32,000 bases of DNA from Cereibacter sphaeroides 2.4.1 (GTDB lineage: Bacteria; Pseudomonadota; Alphaproteobacteria; Rhodobacterales; Rhodobacteraceae): assembly GCF_000012905.2 (NCBI RefSeq), contig NC_007490.2, positions 1-32,000 of the forward strand, written 5' to 3'. The notes below the pieces were generated by a model. The model was not told the origin of the DNA, did not search any database, and was given only the letters and a program-made list of their open reading frames with translations. A program made the position numbers and the translations under genes. Within the stretch, counting starts at the first letter, position 1, and the number at the start of each line of letters is the position of its first letter. Shown one piece after another: positions 1,901-27,764 of this stretch.

Positions 1901-2277
1901 GCATCCGTGTGCCCGCCGGTTGCGCGACGAAGGCAAGCGCTACGTCATGAAATGGAGAAACTTCCTTACCGGCATTTTTGAGCGCACATCGGGTCTTGGT
2001 CGGGGCACGCTTGCTCTGGGCGTCCCACGTTTGTCTCTAGGGCGCATCGGGTGAGCCGTGAGACACCGCAGGTGCCTCACGGCTTGCCCCTCGGCGAGAG
2101 CGGGGGGGGAGGGGTCAAGGGGCCGCGCGGAGCCGCCCGGAGCCACGCGCAGCAAAGCGAGCATGGCGAGGACGGCGAGCACGGCGGGCGCTTGCGCCCC
2201 TTGCCCTTGACCCCGATGGGGGCGGAGCCCCCCTGACGGCGCGCGTCTGCGCGCCATGCTCCTCACCACGGCGAAGC

Positions 2278-3027
2278 CACGCCGGCCGCCCGCAGATCTC
2301 GGCCGCGATCCCGAAGGGGTGACGGCGCGGCAGGTGCCGACGTGCCGGGAGGGCCGAAGGCCCCTAGGCTCGTCGGTGCCTGACGCGGCGGCGCGCCGGA
2401 GGGCAGGGCTCGAGCCCACGCTGGCCGCCCGCAGGTCTGCCCACGATCCCGGAGGGGTGACGGCGCGGCAGGTGCCGACGTGCCGGGAGGGCCGAAGGCC
2501 CCTAGGCTCGTCGGTGCCTGACGCGGCGGCGCGCCGGAGGGCAGGGCTCGCGCCACGCCGGCCGCCCGCAGGTCTGCCCGCGATCCCGGAGGGGTGACGG
2601 CGCGGCAGGTGCCGACGTGCCGGGAGGGCCGAAGGCCCCTAGGCTCGTCGGTGCCTGACGCAGCGGCGCGCCGGACGGCAGGGCTCGCGCCACGCCGGCC
2701 GCCCGCAGGTCTGCCCGCGATCCCGGAGGGGTGACGGCGCGGCAGGTGCCGACGTGCCGGGAGGGCCGAAGGCCCCTAGGCTCGTCGGTGCCTGACGCGG
2801 CGGCGCGCCGGAGGGCAGGGCTCGAGCCCACGCTGGCCGCCCGCAGGTCTGCCCACGATCCCGGAGGGGTGACGGCGCGGCAGGTGCCGACGTGCCGGGA
2901 GGGCCGAAGGCCCCTAGGCTCGTCGGTGCCTGACGCGGCGGCGCGCCGGAGGGCAGGGCTCGCGCCACGCCGGCCGCCCGCAGGTCTGCCCGCGATCCCG
3001 GAGGGGTGACGGCGCGGCAGGTGCCGA
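2278..3027. repeat. Tandem array, about 5.5 copies of a 137/138-bp unit, each containing a roughly 45-nt imperfect hairpin; higher-order period of about 412 bp
   Basis: 'ggggtgacggcgcgg' recurs with its t at 2320, 2458, 2595, 2732, 2870 and 3007. Two unit subtypes (ctcgagcccacgctgg vs ctcgcgccacgccgg) occur in the order A-B-A-A-B-A. The inner hairpin is CCGACG..GGGCC gaa GGCCC..CGTCGG. Confidence 0.95.
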
Positions 3028-3051
3028 CTAGAGAAAGAGACCATCCGCTTG

Positions 3052-3165: not shown

Positions 3166-3891
3166 ATGAAGGTTATAGCTGCTTACAGCCACAAAGGTGG
3201 AACGGGGAAAACGACGACGCTCATGATGCTGGCAAACGCGATTGAAGCGCGCGGACAGACCGCGCTTCTCGTTGATTGCGATCCGCAGCAGAACTTCGCG
3301 ATGTATCGGCGAAACTCTCAAGGCGAAGGGTTCGACTACTGGTCGGACAGAATGGACGTGATCTACCTCGACTTCGAGGGCACCACCGTTCGGCAGCTAG
3401 AAGAAGCACTCCTAGCCGCGGACGAGAGTGGGAAGTATGACTATGCGCTGCTGAACCTTGCAGGCGCCGATCACCCCTTCAACCGCCTGGCTCTGCGCTA
3501 TGCCGAACTGACGCTGGTTCCATTCAAGCCTGCGGCGACGGAGCTCGCTGAACTCACGCCAGCCTTGAACGTGCTGAAGGAGCTCGAGCAAGAAAGCGAG
3601 GTCGGACAGGTCCGCGTTCTTTTCACCATGATGCGCTCGAAGCTGTCGGCGGCCCAGGTGCTCTACAAGGAAGCGGCCGAGCAACAATATCCGGTGATGC
3701 AGACGCACATCAAAGAGACGGCGCTGTTTGCCGATCTGGTCATGCGCGGCCTGCTGGCGCGGACAATCGAAGGCGAGGAGCCCCATGCGCAGGGTCTCAG
3801 GAAGACGGAGATCGGACGCATGAAGGAAGCGCTGGCGGACTGCATGGGACTGCTGGAAGAGGTCAACGGCATCATCGGGAGCGAGCAATGA
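3166..3891 (+). CDS. parA: ParA-family partition ATPase (deviant Walker A)
   Basis: 'MKVIAAYSHKGGTGKTTT' carries the KGGxGKT motif, followed by 'LLVDCDPQ'. The ATG at 3166 is preceded by gagggaa. Length is 241 aa, i.e. a small ParA. Confidence 0.85.
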   Translation: MKVIAAYSHKGGTGKTTTLMMLANAIEARGQTALLVDCDPQQNFAMYRRNSQGEGFDYWSDRMDVIYLDFEGTTVRQLEEALLAADESGKYDYALLNLAGADHPFNRLALRYAELTLVPFKPAATELAELTPALNVLKELEQESEVGQVRVLFTMMRSKLSAAQVLYKEAAEQQYPVMQTHIKETALFADLVMRGLLARTIEGEEPHAQGLRKTEIGRMKEALADCMGLLEEVNGIIGSEQ

Positions 3892-4514
3892 AGAATAAGG
3901 GGTTCCTCGGGGGTGCACGCCGGCTCCCGGCCGCAGATCATAAGGGAGACGGTCGCCCCACTGCGCTCATCGGCACGATCTTCGCTGGAGAATCCGCCAG
4001 CCCCCAAGAGCCGCAGGAGGTTGCTCGGCAGAATGCCGACGTGCCGGCCGCACCTGACGTCAGCGCGGAGCGCTTCGGTCCGCGCGAAAGTCTATCGCCT
4101 CAGGCTCCGCGGCGCGGCCGCCCACCAAAGCAGGCCGAAGCAAAGTCAGACGAGAAGCGCTTCTACTTCAGTTTGTTGGTCGAGCGTGCCAGTGTCGATC
4201 GAGTGGAGACTCTGCTGGTCAACCATCCTGGGGTCAACCGCAGCCTCATCATGCGGCGTGCTGCAATGGACATGCGGGCGAAGCTGCTGGCGGATGGTAT
4301 GAAAAAGGTGCCTCGATACACGCCTAAGGATCCTGTGCGAGTGAGCCTCGAACTGCGGCTTCCGCTGGCGTTCGCCAACAAGATCAAGGATCGTGATGAT
4401 CCTCTTGACCTTGAGCCGATCACTACGGTGCTAGGTCGCCACGTTGCTCGCTACTACGCCCAGATGCTCGATAGCATCGGACAGCGTGACGAGACTGCCC
4501 CTCGCTCTGAATGA
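3888..4514 (+). CDS. Putative centromere-binding partition partner with a ribbon-helix-helix-like segment
   Basis: ATGA overlap with the parA stop, and GGGAG upstream. The N-terminus is basic and low-complexity. 'KRFYFSLLVERASVDRVETLLVNHPGVNRSLIMRRAAMDM' has a beta-strand/helix/helix RHH pattern. No ParB-box HTH is recognisable. Confidence 0.5.
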   Translation: MKNKGFLGGARRLPAADHKGDGRPTALIGTIFAGESASPQEPQEVARQNADVPAAPDVSAERFGPRESLSPQAPRRGRPPKQAEAKSDEKRFYFSLLVERASVDRVETLLVNHPGVNRSLIMRRAAMDMRAKLLADGMKKVPRYTPKDPVRVSLELRLPLAFANKIKDRDDPLDLEPITTVLGRHVARYYAQMLDSIGQRDETAPRSE

Positions 4515-5181: not shown

Positions 5182-5226
5182 CGTTAGATGGAGGGGAGCC
5201 GATGCGGCTCCCACTCCTTCTTCATT

Positions 5227-5418
5227 TCAGAGGATCGGAACGGCGGTGATCGTGGCGATGCTCCACGGTATCAGCCCCCGAAAAAGGATTTCAATGCACT
5301 CGCCCTGATTGGTGAGGGCACGCAGGCCCACGATCTCCCGGTATTTTCCGTCCTCGTCTTCCCACTCGGCCCATACGTCATGCGTTTTGCGGCCGCTCTT
5401 CGTCAGTGGTGACACCAT
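5227..5418 (-). CDS. Hypothetical protein (63 aa) immediately downstream of repeat copy A on the minus strand
   Basis: AGGAGCG Shine-Dalgarno before the ATG at 5418. The Shine-Dalgarno region forms the edge of the ~520-bp repeat. Confidence 0.4.
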   Translation of the reverse strand: MVSPLTKSGRKTHDVWAEWEDEDGKYREIVGLRALTNQGECIEILFRGLIPWSIATITAVPIL

Positions 5419-5423
5419 TACGC

Positions 5424-5953
5424 GCTCCTATCGGTGTGCGGCGGTGGGGTCTTTGCCCTCATCCGCCAGTGGGGCGCGGCCTCTCCGATCTGACCTCTGG
5501 AAAGCACCGCGTGCTTTCCGGAGGACAGAGCGGGGAGGGCGAAGCCCTGCCTGCGGCCACGGGGCCGGATGAGACAGGGGCCGGTGACGGGGAAAATTGG
5601 GGGGCACCCGCGCGGGCTCGCCCGCGTGGGGGAGCCGATTTTCTCCGGCGCCGGTGACGCGCCCCAGGCGCGGCATCACAACCCCTGTTCAGCCGGAACC
5701 GGGGATGTCAGGCGGATCCAGCACCTGCAAAAAGTGTCGCGCCGCTCCCGCGGCGCGTCCGTGCCAACTCGATCCGCGCCTTCGCGGATCTCCATCGACC
5801 TCACCGCATCGAGGAGAGCTACAGCCCGATGGACGAGGCCCGCCCTCTCAGCTCGCCCGCGCGAGGATCGTCACCCGAATGGGCGGAGACAGGGCGTCCT
5901 ATCGGACCATGCACGGCTGCGACATGACCGGCTCAGAGAGACGGGCAGGGCGC
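5424..5953. repeat. Copy A of a ~520-bp hairpin-rich direct repeat (partner at 11411-11936)
   Basis: Near-identical by eye to 11411-11936, for example 'ggtggggtct(t/g)tgccctcatccgccagtggggcgcggcctctccgatctgacc...'. Weaker similarity continues to about 6010. Confidence 0.9.
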
Positions 5954-6474
5954 CCGCCGCGCAGGGACGAGAGGGCGTCCTGGCTCCGATCCCGGCCGCT
6001 TGCGGACGGGACTAGAGCCGTGCCCCGGCCACGCCGGGGTCGCGCCCAGATCGCCCTACCAACCCAGATCGCGTAAAATTCGCCTTCTTTGGCAAAGAAT
6101 GGGGTCAACGACTCGCTGGCGGGCTGTCGATCCACCAATTCCTGGGTCAGTGCAGTGACTTAGATTCACGCGCCTTTGGCGCCCTCTCCGCCACTCTTCC
6201 GGCAAATAACCACACGTTTGTCCACAGCTTCTTGACCAATACCACCACTGGAGGCGAAGAGCCCGTCGAGCACATTATCTTGGGGGCAGGCGGAACAATT
6301 CCCTTGCGGTCATAGGGTTCGAGGCCTCATTTTCGCCTACAGCCTGAAAGGGTTGCGGCCCGCTCTGCCCGTGCCGGGGCAGGCGAGCCGCTCGATCTCG
6401 ACGCGGGCCAAGATCAGGTCACGACATATGTCTGACACAGGCCCGCACCTTCGTAAACTGCTAGGAGGTGTGCC

Positions 6475-6633
6475 ATGAAGGCATCCAGAACGAGGCGGCC
6501 TCGGATCCGCTTGAACAATCCGATGACAGGCTGGGCGATAGATGCCGAGGGCCACGCGGCCATCTTTGGTGTGATTGTCATCATGATGGGGCCGCCGCTC
6601 CTCGCGATGGCGGTGAAGCTGCTCCACCCGTAA
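6475..6633 (+). CDS. Small (52 aa) basic N-terminus plus single-TM protein, too short for the ORF track
   Basis: AGGAGG lies 6 nt before the ATG at 6475. Translation: MKASRTRRPRIRLNNPMTGWAIDAEGHAAIFGVIVIMMGPPLLAMAVKLLHP. A perfect 14-bp hairpin follows 9 nt after the stop. Confidence 0.45.
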   Translation: MKASRTRRPRIRLNNPMTGWAIDAEGHAAIFGVIVIMMGPPLLAMAVKLLHP

Positions 6634-11007: not shown

Positions 11008-11403
11008 TCAGTATTCGGACGGAAGCAGCACAGTCAGGAGCCGCCGCGTCTTGGTGACGTCGGCCGCATCATCCGTGGCGAAGGCATAGGCGGGATCGTA
11101 GAGGTCGATTTTCCAGTAGAGCTTCACCTTCTCGCCGCCATAGATCACGAAAAAGGCGCCGAAATCGTGCTGGCCGGAGGGATCATTAGCCTCCGTGAAG
11201 TCGGCGAAGCTCTGGATGGCCACCATGATCTGCACAAGCACGTCGTAACCGAGCGCCACCACGCCGGGCGTCAACACGATACGGCCGGGCACGGTAAAAT
11301 CGGCGCCCCAAGTCGCGCGAAAGCGATCATTCTGCGCGGCGATCAGCGCGGGCAATGCGGTATCTCCTTCGGCCGCTTCCGGATTTTCCATCAAGTCGCA
11401 CAT
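11008..11403 (-). CDS. DUF3768-like protein (plasmid establishment-region family)
   Basis: AGGAGA before the ATG at 11403 (MCDLMENPE...). 'FTVPGRIVLTPGV', 'YWKIDLYDPAY' and the C-terminal 'TRRLLTVLLPSEY' match my memory of DUF3768. Confidence 0.65.
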   Translation of the reverse strand: MCDLMENPEAAEGDTALPALIAAQNDRFRATWGADFTVPGRIVLTPGVVALGYDVLVQIMVAIQSFADFTEANDPSGQHDFGAFFVIYGGEKVKLYWKIDLYDPAYAFATDDAADVTKTRRLLTVLLPSEY

Positions 11404-11410
11404 GCCATTG

Positions 11411-11936
11411 TCTCCTTCGGTGCGCAACGGTGGGGTCTGTGCCCTCATCCGCCAGTGGGGCGCGGCCTCTCCGATCTGACCTCCGGAAAGCACCGCGTGC
11501 TTTCCGGAGGACAGAGCGGGGAGGGCGAAGCCCTGCCTGCGGCCACGGGGCCGGATGAGACAGGGGCCGGTGACGGGGAAAATTGGGGGGCACCCGCGCG
11601 GGCTCGCCCGCGTGGGGGGAGCCGATTTTCTCCGGCGCCGGTGACGCGCCCCAGGCGCGGCATCACAACCCCTGTTCAGCCGGAACCGGGGATGTCAGGC
11701 GGATCCAGCACCTGCAAAAAGTGTCGCGCCGCCCGCGCGGCGCGTCCTTGCCAACTCGATCCGCGCTTTCGCGGATCTCCATCGACCTCACCGCATCGAG
11801 GAGAGCTGCAACCCGATCGGCAAGGCCCGCCCTCTCAGCTCGCCCGCGCGAGGATCGTCACCCGAATGGGCGGAGACAGGGCGTCCTATCGGACCATGCA
11901 CGGCTGCGACATGACCGGCTCGGAGAGACGGGCAGG
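11411..11936. repeat. Copy B of the ~520-bp hairpin-rich direct repeat
   Basis: See copy A. It contains a perfect 14-bp hairpin CCTCCGGAAAGCAC cgc GTGCTTTCCGGAGG at 11481-11511, GATCCGCG cttt CGCGGATC, CGCGCCGC ccgc GCGGCGCG, and others. Confidence 0.9.
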
Positions 11937-12386
11937 AGCGACACGCACCTCTACGAGTTCCGCGCAAGAGGCGTCGGCTGGGGCGTCGCCGATCCCGAGG
12001 GCTTCCACGACGGCTCGCTCCCGGCCAGCAAGACCAGCCTGCTCGATGTCATAGAAGACACCGGAACGAAGACGATCCATTACATCTACGACTTCGGCGA
12101 CAACTGGCATCATGTGATCAGGGTTGAGAAAATCGACGACGCTCTCCCCGGGGCCGATTATCCACGCCTTGTGCGTGCCATCGGCGCCTGTCCTCCCAAG
12201 GATGTGGGACGTACCCACGGCTATGCCGAGTTCCTCGAGGCTCACGCCGAGACGATGAATCTCCATGGCGGCAAGTTCGAGCCGGACGACCCAGGCATCG
12301 GCCGCATCATCGACAGCTTCCAGCGCCCGGCAAAGAAATGGGCGCCGAGGCCCCGGAAGCCCAAAACCACCAGCAGGCGGCTTTGA
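11800..12386 (+). pseudogene. pRiA4b ORF-3-like (PRiA4_ORF3 family) gene with a decayed or frameshifted 5' part
   Basis: The C-terminal 150 aa are clear: 'HLYEF...GWG', 'IHYIYDFGDNWHHVIRVEKI', 'CPPKDVGRTHGYAEFLE'. The expected N-terminal 'PPIWRR...LH...GW' is only recoverable across two frames (SPEW|RRQGV), implying an extra g in 'tgggcgg' near 11867. Confidence 0.55.
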
Positions 12387-14987: not shown

Positions 14988-16193
14988 GTAAGCGCCTCGC
15001 CGATCCCCTAAGCGGCTCGGCTTGACGTCTTCCGGAAGTGCCACGGCATCAGGTCTTCGATCCGGCTTGCCGGGTGACCATTGAGGATCGCGCGTAGGGT
15101 TTCGGCGATATAGCTCACCGGGTTCACGTCGCTCATCTTGCAGGTGGCCACGAGCGAGGCGAGCATTGCCCAATTCTCGGCGCCGACCTCGTGACCGGCG
15201 AACAACGCATTTTTGCGTGTGAGGGCCACCCTGCGGATCTGGTTCTCGACCGGGTTGGTGTCCATCTCCAGCCGTCCGTCCTCGAGGAACCGGACCAGGC
15301 CCGGCCAGAGGCCGAGGGTGTAGCGGATGTCCTCTGCCAGCTTTGATGACCGTGGGATGCGGGAGAGCTGCACCTCGAGCCAGGGACGGAACGCACTCGC
15401 CGACAAGGCGCAGGGTGCCACCGTAATCCGGGCAGGTCTCGCCGGGATCGAACTCGCGGCGCTCGCGCGGCGTGTCGGGCGGCACCCGCGGACGGCGGCG
15501 CGGCGCCTTCTCCGGGGCTTCGTTGTCGCTTGGTTCATCTGACGTCCCGCAGACCGGCGCGGTCTCGACGCTTTCCGGCTCGGGTGGCGGGGCGACCTCG
15601 GCCTGAGCCACCTGCAGACTCTCGAGTGCGAACTCCAGCTGCTCGATCTCGCGGGCGATCTTCTCCGAGCCCTTGCCGAAGGCCTGCCGCTTCAGCCGCG
15701 CGATCCGCAGCCGGAGCGACTGCACCAGCAGGTCGTGCGCGCGCAGCGTGGCCTGCAGCTGAAGGATCATCGCCTTCAGCGCAGCAGGGTCGTCTGGCAG
15801 GGAAGAGGCGGTGAGCGACATGGCCATAGCTACCATGCCGATGCCAGAATGCCCAACAAAACAAGGGGAAAGCGGCGCTTTGACTCACATCCGCGTCGGC
15901 GCGCTCGTCCAGCGCGGCTGGCGCCAATCGATCCCTTCCCAGAGCATCGCCATTTGCGCCGGTGTCAGCGCAACCTTGCCCTCGGTGGCCTTCGGCCAAG
16001 GGAAGTGCCCGCGCTCGAGCACCTTGTAATAGAGGCAGAAGTCCTGCCCATCCCAGTGCAGGATCTTCAGCCGGTCGCCCATGCGCCCCCGAAACACCAG
16101 GAGCGTGCCGCCCGCCGGATCCTCGCCCAATACCTTCTTCGCCCGCGCGCAGAGCCCGGCAATCCCGCAGCGCATGACGCAGAACACCCACAA
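14988..16193 (-). mobile_element. Internally deleted IS66-family copy: IR, TnpC lacking its catalytic core, and TnpB truncated at its N-terminus
   Basis: The IR 'gtaagcgcctcgccgatcccc' starts at 14988. The TnpC N-terminus (MSLTASSLPDDPAALKAMILQLQ...CPDYGGTLRLVGE) and C-terminus (LEMDTNPVENQIRRVALTRKNALFAG...) lie in different frames and join near 15400. 14988-15300 is near-identical to 26971-27300. Confidence 0.8.
15885..16193 (-). pseudogene. tnpB: IS66 TnpB (orf2), N-terminally truncated
   Basis: 'LLVFRGRMGDRLKILHWDGQDFCLYYKVLERGHFPWP...LTPAQMAMLWEGIDWR'. Confidence 0.75.
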
Positions 16194-24292: not shown

Positions 24293-24335
24293 CCACCGTA
24301 AGCGCAGGCTGACCGCCCCTCGGGTAGCGGCTTGA

Positions 24336-25907
24336 CTATCCGCGGAAGTTCCAGGGCATCAGTTCCGCGATGTCGCTCTGCATGTGCTGGTCGAGGATCT
24401 TGCGGAGGGTCGCTGCGATATACGCCTCAGGGTTCACGCCGTTCAGACGGCAGGTGCCGATCAGCGAGGCGATGCGGGCCCATGTCTTCGCCCCATCCGT
24501 GGAGCCGGCAAATAGTGCATTCTTTCTTGTAAGTGGAATCGGACGGATCGCGTTCTCCACCCCGTTGGTGTCCATCTCGAGCCGGCCGTCTTCGAGGAAA
24601 CGGGTCATGCCGTCCCATCTCTTCAGCCCGTACCGGATGTGCGTGCTGAGCTCGTTGGACGAGGAGAGATCCTGAAGGCAGCCCTCGAGCCAGGGCCGGA
24701 GCGCCTCGACGATGGGCCTCGAGAACTTCTGGCGGACCGCGACGCGGGCGGCGGGATCACGGCCGCGGATCTCCTTCTCGATGGCGTAGAGCTGCGCGAT
24801 CCGCGCGATCATCTCGTCGCAGATCGGCGAAGGCGTGTCCTGGCTGAACTTCACGAAGCGCCGCCTCCAATGTGTCCAGCAGAAGGCCAGGGTCCAGGGC
24901 TTCGCGGTCTTCTTGGGGTCGGCCAGCAGGTCGTAGCCGCCATGGCCGTCAACCAGCAGCGTACCGCCGGCGAACCCCTTCAGGATCTCCTGCGCGACCT
25001 TGCCGCCGCGGCTTTGCGAGTGATGGAAGACCACGATCGGAGGATCGCCGCCGCCCCAGCCCCGCTGGTCGCGCAACACCACCCATAGCCAGTCCTTGCG
25101 CACTGCGCCGGTCCCGGGCGCCAGCACGGGGGCGGTGGTCTCGTCCATCTGCAGCCGGTCGCTTCGTCGAAGCTCGGCCATCATCGCGTCGATCACCGGG
25201 GCCAGCAGCTGCGCCGCCCGCCCCGACCACTCGGCCAGCATCGTGCGGTCGAGTTCGATCCCCTGGCGCCGGTAGATGTCGGCCTGGCGGTAGAACGGAA
25301 GGTAGTCGCCGAACTTGCCCACCACGCTGTGCGCGACCAAGGCCTCAGTCGGCAGGCCGCGCGACACCAGCCATTCCGGCGCCGGAGCCTGGGCATGTTG
25401 TGCCCCCGCGCAGGTCCGGCAGACGTATTTCGGCCGGATCGTCACCAGCACGCGGAACTGCGCCGGGATGACATCGAGACGCTCGGTCCTGGTTTCGCCC
25501 ACCCTTTGCATCTCGCCGCAGCCGCAAGGACAAAGGATGCTGTCGGGCTCGATCACCCGCTCGATCCGCGGCAGGTGCTCCGGCAGGTGCCCCTTGTTGC
25601 GCTCCGAAGGCCGGGACGGAGCCTTCCGGGTGCCGAGCGCCTTCTCGGCCGCTTCGCTCGCCGCGGCCAGCATGCCGGCCGCCGCCTCGACATCCTCGAA
25701 CGGCAGGTTCCGTTGGTCGGGGTCGAGCTTCTCGGACTTCGAGCCGAAGGTGTCGCGCCGCATCTGTGCGAGCAGCCGCTCCAGCCGGGCGCGGGCCTCC
25801 TCGACCTCAACCAGGCGGGCCTCGGCCGCGGTGCGCGCGGCTTCCGCCTCGGCCAGCCGCCGCTCGAGATCCGCCACGCGGGCCGCACTGGTTCGGATCG
25901 ATGCCAT
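24336..25907 (-). CDS. tnpC: IS66-family transposase TnpC
   Basis: Leucine-zipper-like N-terminus, 'CPCGCGEM...', 'LQMDETTAPVL', 'LLVDGHGGY' and 'LEMDTNGVENAIRPIPLTRKNALFAGS'. ATG at 25907 is preferred over TTG at 25937. Confidence 0.9.
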   Translation of the reverse strand: MASIRTSAARVADLERRLAEAEAARTAAEARLVEVEEARARLERLLAQMRRDTFGSKSEKLDPDQRNLPFEDVEAAAGMLAAASEAAEKALGTRKAPSRPSERNKGHLPEHLPRIERVIEPDSILCPCGCGEMQRVGETRTERLDVIPAQFRVLVTIRPKYVCRTCAGAQHAQAPAPEWLVSRGLPTEALVAHSVVGKFGDYLPFYRQADIYRRQGIELDRTMLAEWSGRAAQLLAPVIDAMMAELRRSDRLQMDETTAPVLAPGTGAVRKDWLWVVLRDQRGWGGGDPPIVVFHHSQSRGGKVAQEILKGFAGGTLLVDGHGGYDLLADPKKTAKPWTLAFCWTHWRRRFVKFSQDTPSPICDEMIARIAQLYAIEKEIRGRDPAARVAVRQKFSRPIVEALRPWLEGCLQDLSSSNELSTHIRYGLKRWDGMTRFLEDGRLEMDTNGVENAIRPIPLTRKNALFAGSTDGAKTWARIASLIGTCRLNGVNPEAYIAATLRKILDQHMQSDIAELMPWNFRG

Positions 25908-26833: not shown

Positions 26834-27764
26834 ATGCATGGATAGCCGCGCACCCGAGCGATGCTGTCGAGTTCACGGCCAACGCGCTGCCCTCGAACGC
26901 CATCCTCAAATGGCAGGAGGATCGCAAGGTCGAGTGGCACTATATCGCTCCGGGAAAGCCCATGCAGAACTTAAGCGCCTCGCCGATCCCCTAAGCGGCT
27001 CGGCTTGACGTCTTCCGGAAGTGCCACGGCATCAGGTCTTCGATCCGGCTTGCCGGGTGACCATTGAGGATCGCGCGTAGGGTTTCGGCGATATAGCTCA
27101 CCGGGTTCACGTCGCTCATCTTGCAGGTGGCCACGAGCGAGGCGAGCATTGCCCAATTCTCGGCGCCGACCTCGTGACCGGCGAACAACGCATTTTTGCG
27201 TGTGAGGGCCACCCTGCGGATCTGGTTCTCGACCGGGTTGGTGTCCATCTCCAGCCGTCCGTCCTCGAGGAACCGGACCAGGCCCGGCCAGAGGCCCAGG
27301 GTGTCCCGTATCGCCGTGCAACATCGGCGACATGAACGCCGGGGCGGTAACTCTCGGAGGCGATCCGGGCCTTCTCCTCATCGCTCCAGCGCCGCCGACC
27401 CGACGGACCCTCGACCACCTCGAGCCGCCCCGCAAAGCCATTCGGCGAGACGTCCATACAGCCGTCCATTTTGACGTCCACTCCCGTGCAAACACCCGAT
27501 CATTCGCACGTTCGGGAGTTCGTCGGCAGGAGGGGAGCGGCGTGGCGCTTGCTGCAGAACGGCTTCGTCGAGAGCTTCAATGGCCGCCTGCGCGACGAGT
27601 GCCTCAACGAGCACCTGTTCGCCAACCTGCGCCACGCTCGGGAGCTAATCTCGGCCTGGCGCGACGATTACAACCACCACCGCCCTGACACGAGCCTCGA
27701 CGGGCTCATTCCCAAGGGAGTATCACCAACGGTCAGTAGAGGACCAAACCCTGAACATAGCTAA
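26834..27764 (+). pseudogene. IS3/IS407-type orfB (integrase core), 5'-deleted and split by the mini-IS66
   Basis: 'SDAVEFTANAL...WHYIAPGKPMQN' (to 26970) continues exactly as 'GFVESFNGRLRDECLNEHLF...YNHHRP' from 27561. Confidence 0.8.
26971..27552 (-). mobile_element. 582-bp internally deleted IS66 derivative (both IRs kept; TnpC C-terminus fused to TnpA N-terminus) with 8-bp target-site duplication TGCAGAAC
   Basis: The ends are 'ttaagcgcctcgcc' and the reverse complement of 'ggcgtggcgcttgc'. TGCAGAAC occurs at 26963-26970 and 27553-27560. Removing the element restores the orfB reading frame. Confidence 0.85.

Follow-up and report, generated by a model that had tools for sequence, protein, structure and literature searches.

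A conserved, structured and strand-specific element preceding establishment and anti-defence genes on alphaproteobacterial plasmids

Why should two different genes on one plasmid share the whole of their upstream sequence? The question is raised by the first 32,000 nucleotides of plasmid a of Cereibacter sphaeroides 2.4.1 (NC_007490.2, positions 1 to 32,000; hereafter the window), in which a hairpin-rich direct repeat stands immediately before two minus-strand genes. Plasmid a (153 kb) has a MOBF relaxase and is of the MPF_F type; its MobF gene ends just left of the window. The repeat matches plasmid a at 100%. Local megablast aligned positions 5425–5952 (copy A) with 11412–11940 (copy B) at 96.6% identity over 530 columns, blastn gave 96.8% over 526, and a MAFFT alignment agreed; the near-identity of the two copies is real and far above chance expectation. 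The original prediction, made from the letters of the window, had described such a repeat and had placed the end of each copy at the Shine-Dalgarno sequence of a different gene, and on both points it was right. Identity begins in copy A at CTCCT (5425–5429), the reverse complement of an AGGAG Shine-Dalgarno sequence, 7 nt from the ATG at 5418 of a 63-aa open reading frame (ORF), and in copy B at CTCCT (11412–11416), 9 nt from the ATG at 11403 of a DUF3768 gene. Comparison with sister plasmids corrects the extent of the repeat to a longer unit, reaching about 6052 in copy A and up to ~628 bp in Cereibacter MOBF plasmids. The conserved element is only the first ~330 nt, and likeness of copy A to genera other than Cereibacter stops near 5800. 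The remainder is a Cereibacter-specific extension, of which ~200 bp are common to both window copies. We are confident that the core represents a conserved, structured and strand-specific family of cis-regulatory elements preceding establishment and anti-defence genes.

A scan of one genome per species with the most conserved 22-mer, and a subsequent nhmmer search, brought the family to about 100 copies of the ~330-nt core. They lie on plasmids from Cereibacter, Paracoccus, Roseobacteraceae, Shinella and Sinorhizobium, with core identities of 60–85% across at least eight genera. The C. azotoformans plasmids pORIO2 and pORIO3 carry four full copies each, all co-oriented, upstream of the 63-aa ORF (which has no Pfam match), a DUF932 gene, a 624-aa ParB-like gene and a DUF3768 gene. 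Two copies each, 84–86% identical and 340–365 nt long, are present on the small MOBP/MPF_T Cereibacter plasmids p.D and pORIO6, before DUF4942 and DUF932/DUF945 genes. A BLAST search at high sensitivity, with nhmmer after it, detected copies at 70–80% identity on plasmids from Roseobacter, Ruegeria, Dinoroseobacter, Leisingera, Paracoccus, Shinella and Sinorhizobium, and each of these again sits directly upstream of an opposite-strand gene. In the family as a whole, an ORF with a Shine-Dalgarno sequence and a start codon lies on the opposite strand 8–20 nt beyond profile position 1 in 92 of the 100 copies. DUF3768 is the commonest family among these 92 downstream genes (22), followed by ArdC with its ArdcN and zincin domains (14), a 55-aa protein (11), orphan N6/N4 DNA methylases (11), a 209-aa protein (7) and DUF932 (6); ParB-like and DUF4942 proteins and small ORFs also occur. 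All copies within any one locus are co-oriented, with one copy per operon. This gene set is that of plasmid establishment and anti-defence islands (PMC11541004). Literature searches returned no published description of the alphaproteobacterial element, which is widespread and apparently undescribed.

Some of the downstream genes deserve a note of their own. A conserved protein of 53–55 aa (MARDKKIEG...EYA) is encoded directly downstream of the element in 11 contigs from Roseobacteraceae or unclassified sources (L007, L018, L025, L026, L033, L035, L040, L058, L085, L105 and L130) and belongs to no Pfam family. In the five of these contigs with a relaxase nearby, its gene has as neighbours a ParA-like operon and, in divergent orientation, a relaxase operon. 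Further uncharacterised proteins encoded downstream of the element have 209, 84 and 122 aa.

The structure of the element is conserved along with its position. The strong local hairpins listed in the original prediction are all present: CCTC(T/C)GGAAAGCAC cgc GTGCTTTCCGGAGG at 5494–5524, a perfect stem in copy B, with a single T·G pair in copy A; GATCCGCG cctt CGCGGATC at 5771–5790; CGCGCCGC tccc GCGGCGCG at 5738–5757; and a CCCGCGCGGG-type palindrome near 5609–5630. On the + strand, the core of every lineage takes up a fold with the same parts, namely a small hairpin, hairpin 1 (drawn at 5472–5547 in copy A), GGGC-GNA-GCCC (5537–5547), a conserved CC(Y)GCGG, hairpin 2 (5548–5716) and an A-rich linker. 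Covariance models of hairpins 1 and 2 were built from 10–11 diverse copies and then used to align all copies. Compensatory changes were seen in 24 of 31 pairs of hairpin 1 and in 47 of 60 pairs of hairpin 2. In hairpin 1, 88.8% of cells were paired, against 77.2% in shuffles and 34–60% with slid partners, and in hairpin 2 75.1%, against 61.7% and 40–46%, figures that overstate significance, since each alignment was fitted to its model and the copies share descent. Each hairpin nonetheless lies above all 500 shuffles and every slid control, and the tip of hairpin 1 alone occurs as six different complementary sequence pairs among lineages. The covariation supports a structure that is kept by selection.

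Between hairpins 1 and 2, about 98 of the 100 copies carry a mini-hairpin in one of the variants GC-GCA-GC, GC-GAA-GC, GC-GAAA-GC or GC-GTA-GC. According to a 2026 review, GCGNAGC and GCGNNAGC form extraordinarily stable DNA mini-hairpins, whose natural sites include the primase start of phages G4, St-1 and alpha3, ssiA of RSF1010 and the hairpin promoters of the phage N4 virion RNA polymerase (vRNAP), all of them initiation sites on single-stranded DNA (ssDNA) (PMC13037366). As described there for G4, the motif of the element can fold alone or join a longer hairpin (PMC13037366).

A first explanation to be weighed against these data is that the repeat has no function, being either a segmental duplication of an intergenic region with the 5' end of a pRiA4b ORF-3 gene, as the original prediction had proposed as its second hypothesis, or a selfish or recombinogenic repeat. 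Part of this picture is correct. Copies within one Cereibacter plasmid are 96–98% identical and their common sequence runs 200–300 bp past the core, which suggests recent events in the Cereibacter MOBF plasmids, either spread of copies or gene conversion between them. The left flank of copy A is that of pORIO2 copy 1, with the 63-aa ORF, and its outer right flank, ahead of the SOS-response peptidase gene, is that of pORIO2 copy 3. Since copy A joins these two flanks, plasmid a is seen to lack ~9.8 kb that lie between two repeat copies in pORIO2 and pORIO3 (L005 20001–30359 versus window 5419–6500) and carry DUF932, GGDEF phosphodiesterase, ParB-like and small genes. The loss is consistent with recombination between repeats, and the earlier remark that the copies could delete intervening DNA thereby gains indirect support. 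Extension fragments, 84–87% identical and without a core, are also found among transporter and regulator genes on plasmid b of the same strain (L002 4001–4152 and 5492–5574).

The remainder of the duplication hypothesis did not stand. The RefSeq ORF 11583–12386 (267 aa, pRiA4b ORF-3 family, TTG start) reads through the repeat, but its PF07929 match covers residues 117–224 (profile positions 40–148 of 173), begins exactly at the repeat end and so stays outside the repeat. Joining the frames as had been suggested left the start of the PF07929 match where it was and brought its score to 90.9 bits, against 89.8 before, and the N-terminal 54-aa piece alone had no Pfam match at E ≤ 1. A decayed pRiA4b ORF-3 N-terminus inside the repeat was therefore rejected for want of support from hidden Markov models. 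The gene abutting copy B, which stops at the start of that gene, instead looks 5'-truncated, because the first ~116 residues of the annotated ORF come from the repeat and are without Pfam support. Functionless duplication is further at odds with the identity of the core across genera, with the compensatory changes in two hairpins and with the fixed position and orientation relative to start codons; for the core it is largely refuted, and we consider it very improbable. An integron attC-like site or a miniature inverted-repeat transposable element was also considered and dropped, because the element is far longer than attC, has no linked integrase and has its edge fixed at the Shine-Dalgarno sequence.

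The two strands of the element differ strongly in their folding. As ssDNA, copy A reaches −175.3 kcal/mol on the + strand (z = −7.7 against dinucleotide shuffles) and −144.6 kcal/mol on the − strand (z = −2.1); as RNA, the corresponding z-scores are −5.7 and −3.05. For the core of copy A (5425–5737), the values are −123.4 kcal/mol with z = −10 on the + strand and −92.3 kcal/mol with z = −4 on the − strand. Without exception among the 92 distinct cores, the + strand, the downstream gene's template, folds more stably, by 18.5 kcal/mol on average (range 6–32), with z-scores of −3.7 to −10 versus −0.7 to −4 for the − strand. It is also G-rich, not T-rich, in 92/92 cores, and the asymmetry survives composition-preserving shuffles. 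G·T outnumbers A·C at modelled pairs by 190:65 in hairpin 1 and 291:97 in hairpin 2, or ~3:1, a ratio somewhat inflated by the preference of covariance-model alignment for G·U over A·C. Neither a promoter at the left end for a + strand RNA nor a conserved + strand terminator was found. Since a structured mRNA leader would give the opposite asymmetry and a + strand RNA would lack such signals, the structure is most simply taken to reside in ssDNA of the template strand. An antisense or small RNA read from the + strand was rejected on the same lack of a conserved left-end promoter; the run of T residues that follows the long branch of hairpin 2 belongs to a stem and is no terminator, because it covaries to G/C in other lineages. 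Rfam gave no match at gathering score in the whole window, and at E ≤ 10 only generic hairpin (miRNA precursor) matches; no tRNA or tmRNA was found.

Considering these features together, we hypothesize that the element could work while the entering plasmid is still single-stranded after conjugation. The template strand of the downstream gene would fold into the two long hairpins and the GC-GNA-GC mini-hairpin, escape coating by SSB and, as a single-strand initiation signal, recruit RNA polymerase and/or primase. The gene just downstream would then be transcribed, or made double-stranded, early and only transiently. On the established double-stranded DNA (dsDNA) plasmid the element would offer no promoter, and the terminator-like hairpin at its upstream edge would shield the gene from read-through. 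Such a signal, serving as promoter and/or primer site, seems to us the most likely mechanism, with a probability of roughly 0.4–0.45; both the activity as ssDNA and the enzyme recruited are what we infer.

ssDNA promoters of the Frpo/ssi type were reportedly described by Masai and Arai in 1997. Frpo/ssi and the ssDNA promoters of classes 2 and 3 are scattered upstream of leading-region operons (PMC11541004; PMC12672017), and classes 1–3 have been recognised in pESBL, with a stem-loop criterion of < −75 kcal/mol per 300 nt (PMC12672017). The 330-nt cores, at −78 to −128 kcal/mol on the template strand, fall below that value. In IncF and IncI1 plasmids, Frpo/ssi elements resemble the present family in being dispersed repeats of ~300 nt, in one orientation, upstream of leading-region operons (ssb, psiB, ardA, klcA, methylase), with large stem-loops on the template strand; genes under Frpo/ssi are silent from such sites in dsDNA. 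The differences are equally clear. The stems of the element rebuild no −35/−10 hexamers, its two hairpins with a three-way junction contrast with the single long hairpin of Frpo/ssi, and blastn at E ≤ 0.01 found no similarity in 5,426 complete Escherichia coli genomes with F-like and IncI1 plasmids. Because the defining sequence features of Frpo/ssi are absent, the element is best kept apart from that group. The first hypothesis of the original prediction, a reiterated structured promoter or leader possibly active as ssDNA, holds in its broad lines, being favoured by the conserved family, the single orientation, the covariation and the stable template strand, but not by any rebuilt promoter hexamers or similarity to E. 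coli sequences.

For a single-strand signal of this kind it matters which strand is transferred, and on this the data point both ways. On p.D, the structured strand carries CCTATCCTGC 35 nt upstream of mobC, a match to the RP4 nic region at 10/10 positions; an oligonucleotide quoted in PMC3772185 has the same sequence for the RP4 nic region, and the sequence fits the MOBP consensus YATCCTG|Y. With an RP4-type nic there, the structured strand of p.D would be the transferred strand, both elements would lie 4–6 kb into the leading region, and the transferred strand would be the template. On pTAV1 of Paracoccus versutus, the genes of three elements all point to the mobC–relaxase region 3.6–14.5 kb away, which would give a p.D-like geometry under the usual relaxase-last polarity; contigs L041, L045 and L034 share this arrangement. 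For plasmid a, the proposed mechanism would have the + strand transferred. The folding asymmetry amounts to −29 kcal/mol in MOBF plasmids, −23 in the p.D/pTAV1 type and −12 in the divergent-relaxase type described below, a comparison that rests on few, related sequences and is suggestive. RP4- and RSF1010-type nic motifs elsewhere were chance matches, and no nic could be identified in the L007-type relaxase upstream region or in the pTAV1 intergenic region.

The gap between a DsbA-like gene and the T4CP–MobF operon, immediately left of the window (L001 164–412; NZ_CP015289 3514–3762), is conserved and relatively AT-rich. In NZ_CP015289 it holds CACATGTG followed by CGTTATTGAATAGC, with the strand ambiguous in this quasi-palindromic sequence. 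We take the pair to be loosely similar to the IR2–nic region of R388 and a possible oriT.

Several observations weigh against the single-strand mechanism. The −35/−10-like duplexes that the original prediction had envisaged in a long-range ssDNA structure were looked for on the hairpin arms, and no positionally conserved −35/−10 pair was found on the arms of hairpin 1 or 2. The best hexamer matches reach 7–8/12 and, in Cereibacter, point toward the loop. A motif resembling CTTGAC in the 3' arm of hairpin 2, at first sight promising, occurs in some lineages only and has no −10 partner. Nor was there a sigma-70-type promoter on either strand of 5200–6200, and on the gene strand only 10 of 93 copies gave a 7–8/12 match, at inconsistent places; a sigma-70 promoter was rejected both as dsDNA on the gene strand and as a mimic on hairpin arms. 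On the window plasmid and on pORIO2 and pORIO3, MobF converges on the element genes, and the oriT of the window plasmid was not located, the DsbA–T4CP gap being no more than weakly similar, in a quasi-palindromic sequence, to the nic region of R388. Seven contigs (five closely related Roseobacteraceae contigs with the 55-aa gene, L126 and L037) have the genes linked to the element running divergently from the relaxase operon, so that under the relaxase-last rule the structured strand would there be the non-transferred one. Phylogenetic relatedness of the copies makes the shuffle controls overstate significance, and the wobble ratio is, as noted, somewhat inflated. Finally, on the Bacillus plasmid pLS20, which carries the closest architectural analogue of the element, EGeRS1 (establishment gene regulatory sequence type 1), the transferred strand is the non-template strand (PMC8708921). 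We put the mechanism at about 0.45 in view of the missing promoter hexamers and of a transferred strand that is ambiguous on this plasmid and seemingly the wrong one in one subfamily.

EGeRS1 also provides the model for the main rival explanation. It comprises GC-rich repeats of 420–750 bp upstream of five establishment operons of pLS20, that of ardC included, which end at the ribosome-binding site (RBS) (Val-Calvo et al. 2021; PMC8708921). Adjoining the RBS is a core of ~325 nt, accompanied by an optional upstream extension, with many inverted repeats and very stable predicted folds; EGeRS1 has no constitutive promoter and no recognisable housekeeping-sigma promoter, and in its native orientation it blocks read-through (PMC8708921). 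By analogy, the present element would act on dsDNA or RNA as an insulator joined to a long structured leader, its promoter being non-canonical or induced by a plasmid or host factor, and the ssDNA intermediate would be irrelevant. The architecture is nearly identical (PMC8708921), with repeats before several establishment operons, an end at the RBS, a core of ~330 nt here and an extension that brings the unit to ~628 bp in Cereibacter MOBF plasmids. The mixed orientation relative to the relaxase among plasmids suits this explanation, as does the mRNA-sense strand, which as RNA folds somewhat better than shuffles (z = −3.05). So does the terminator-like hairpin at the upstream edge of the element, formed on the gene strand by the A-rich linker and the next GC hairpin (5757–5738); a strict scan upstream of the core was positive in 19 of 93 family members, mostly Cereibacter, and no consensus promoter was seen in silico.

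Other features do not fit an EGeRS1-like regulator. It is the antisense, template strand that folds better in 92/92 cores and holds the wobble pairs, whereas an mRNA leader would show the opposite; a + strand RNA has no evident promoter or conserved terminator; and GC-GNA-GC has been described as a DNA mini-hairpin motif (PMC13037366). Covariation, strand asymmetry and the GNA mini-hairpin are unreported for EGeRS1, and the better-folding strand here is the template, which would be the transferred strand in p.D/pTAV1-type plasmids. The resemblance, between Firmicutes and Alphaproteobacteria, is architectural, and homology would be unexpected across phyla. We regard this explanation as possible but doubtful.

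The mini-hairpin brings in another candidate, a G4-like primase signal and nothing more, which would start the complementary strand on the transferred strand and by its position make the downstream genes double-stranded first. A GCGNAGC/GCGNNAGC-type mini-hairpin flanked by further hairpins is shared with the complementary-strand origins of G4, St-1 and alpha3, RSF1010 ssiA/ssiB and the N4 vRNAP promoter (PMC13037366), the absence of −35/−10 hexamers agrees with it, and Frpo likewise makes primer RNA (PMC12672017). Those signals, however, are 40–140 nt long, are unlinked to gene starts and serve DnaG, RepB' and vRNAP, whereas the element ends at the Shine-Dalgarno sequence in 92/100 copies, with one copy per operon, which suits expression control better. 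Expression of a gene made double-stranded would in turn depend on a promoter, of which the stretch from the putative start site to the gene shows no sign. The CTG start triplet of E. coli DnaG is not conserved: 41 of 100 copies have it no more than 9 nt 3' of the mini-hairpin and the others have CCG or CCA, although the specificity of alphaproteobacterial DnaG may differ. Priming alone is on this evidence unlikely. A more far-reaching idea returns to the single-strand initiation signal: the family might be a new class of initiation element, in which GC-GNA-GC between two covarying hairpins is recognised by RNA polymerase or primase without imitation of sigma-70 and fires anti-restriction and establishment genes across alphaproteobacterial plasmids. 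This is speculative and rather unlikely; such an element might share its logic with EGeRS1 of Gram-positive plasmids.

The features of the two copies and of the adjoining genes are collected in Table 1.

Table 1. Coordinates in the window of the two element copies, their parts and the genes that adjoin them
Feature	Position	Strand	Details
63-aa ORF	5227–5418	−	Directly downstream of copy A; RefSeq CDS WP_017140535.1
Copy A, conserved core	5425–5737	+	Structured strand (+) is the template of the downstream gene; nhmmer profile positions 1–365 at 5431–5795
Copy A, hairpin 1	5466–5561	+	Long, irregular, 14-bp tip at 5494–5524; covariance model R1, 100.1 bits
GGGC-GAA-GCCC with mini-hairpin motif GCGAAGC	5537–5547	+	GC-GNA/GNNA-GC in ~98/100 copies
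Copy A, hairpin 2 (~170 nt)	5546–5722	+	Basal stem of ~35 bp and three-way junction with a long and a short branch; covariance model R2, 142.1 bits
Terminator-like hairpin, CGCGCCGC-GGGA-GCGGCGCG then ACACTTTTTG	5728–5757	−	Gene-strand reading, upstream of the core; only match of the consensus scan
Copy A, Cereibacter-specific extension	5758–6052	+	Common to copy B only to 5952; aligned with the right flanks of pORIO2 copies 1, 3 and 4
DUF3768 gene	11008–11403	−	Directly downstream of copy B, followed by DUF4942; RefSeq annotation
Copy B, conserved core	11412–11724	+	nhmmer match 11418–11782; R1 match 11452–11547; R2 match 11532–11709
Copy B, terminator-like hairpin (11725–11744) and extension	11725–11936	+	Extension ends early, at 11936
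5'-truncated pRiA4b ORF-3 family gene	11931–12386	+	Abuts copy B; PF07929

According to RefSeq, the 5.4 kb that separate copies A and B hold a hypothetical gene, a gene for an SOS-response-associated peptidase, VapBC, two hypothetical genes and the DUF4942 and DUF3768 genes. Other repeats were seen elsewhere in the window. Positions 1056–2038 contain about 11 tandem, CCCGGCA-rich units of 75 nt, with identities of 81–98% in the centre of the array and 62–70% at its ends; the array lies in a 263-aa hypothetical ORF on the minus strand (1066–1857) that has only a weak, sub-threshold Pfam match. Four to five tandem units of ~137 nt, 95–99% identical, occupy a non-coding gap at 2276–3028, upstream of a gene for a VirC1/ParA-like ATPase (3166–3891) and its partner (3888–4514), and may be centromere-like partition sites. 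A 333-bp direct repeat (14989–15321 and 26972–27304) has two copies of 99.7% identity 12 kb apart and a weaker third copy near 24299–24598; an IS66-family TnpB gene (about 15886–16176) lies just downstream of the 14989–15321 copy.

Early, transient anti-defence expression from the entering single strand has been experimentally demonstrated only in enterobacterial IncF and IncI1 plasmids. The element described here is a concrete candidate for such expression in Alphaproteobacteria, in rhizobia, Paracoccus and the marine Roseobacter group, and its position before ArdC, orphan methylase, DUF3768, DUF932 and ParB-like genes, together with its conserved, covarying and strand-specific structure, makes that candidate testable. 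The repeats also account for modular reshuffling and deletion within establishment islands. In practical terms, a copy can serve as a marker: the gene directly downstream is a candidate establishment or anti-defence gene, as with the family-less proteins of 55, 63, 84 and 209 aa.

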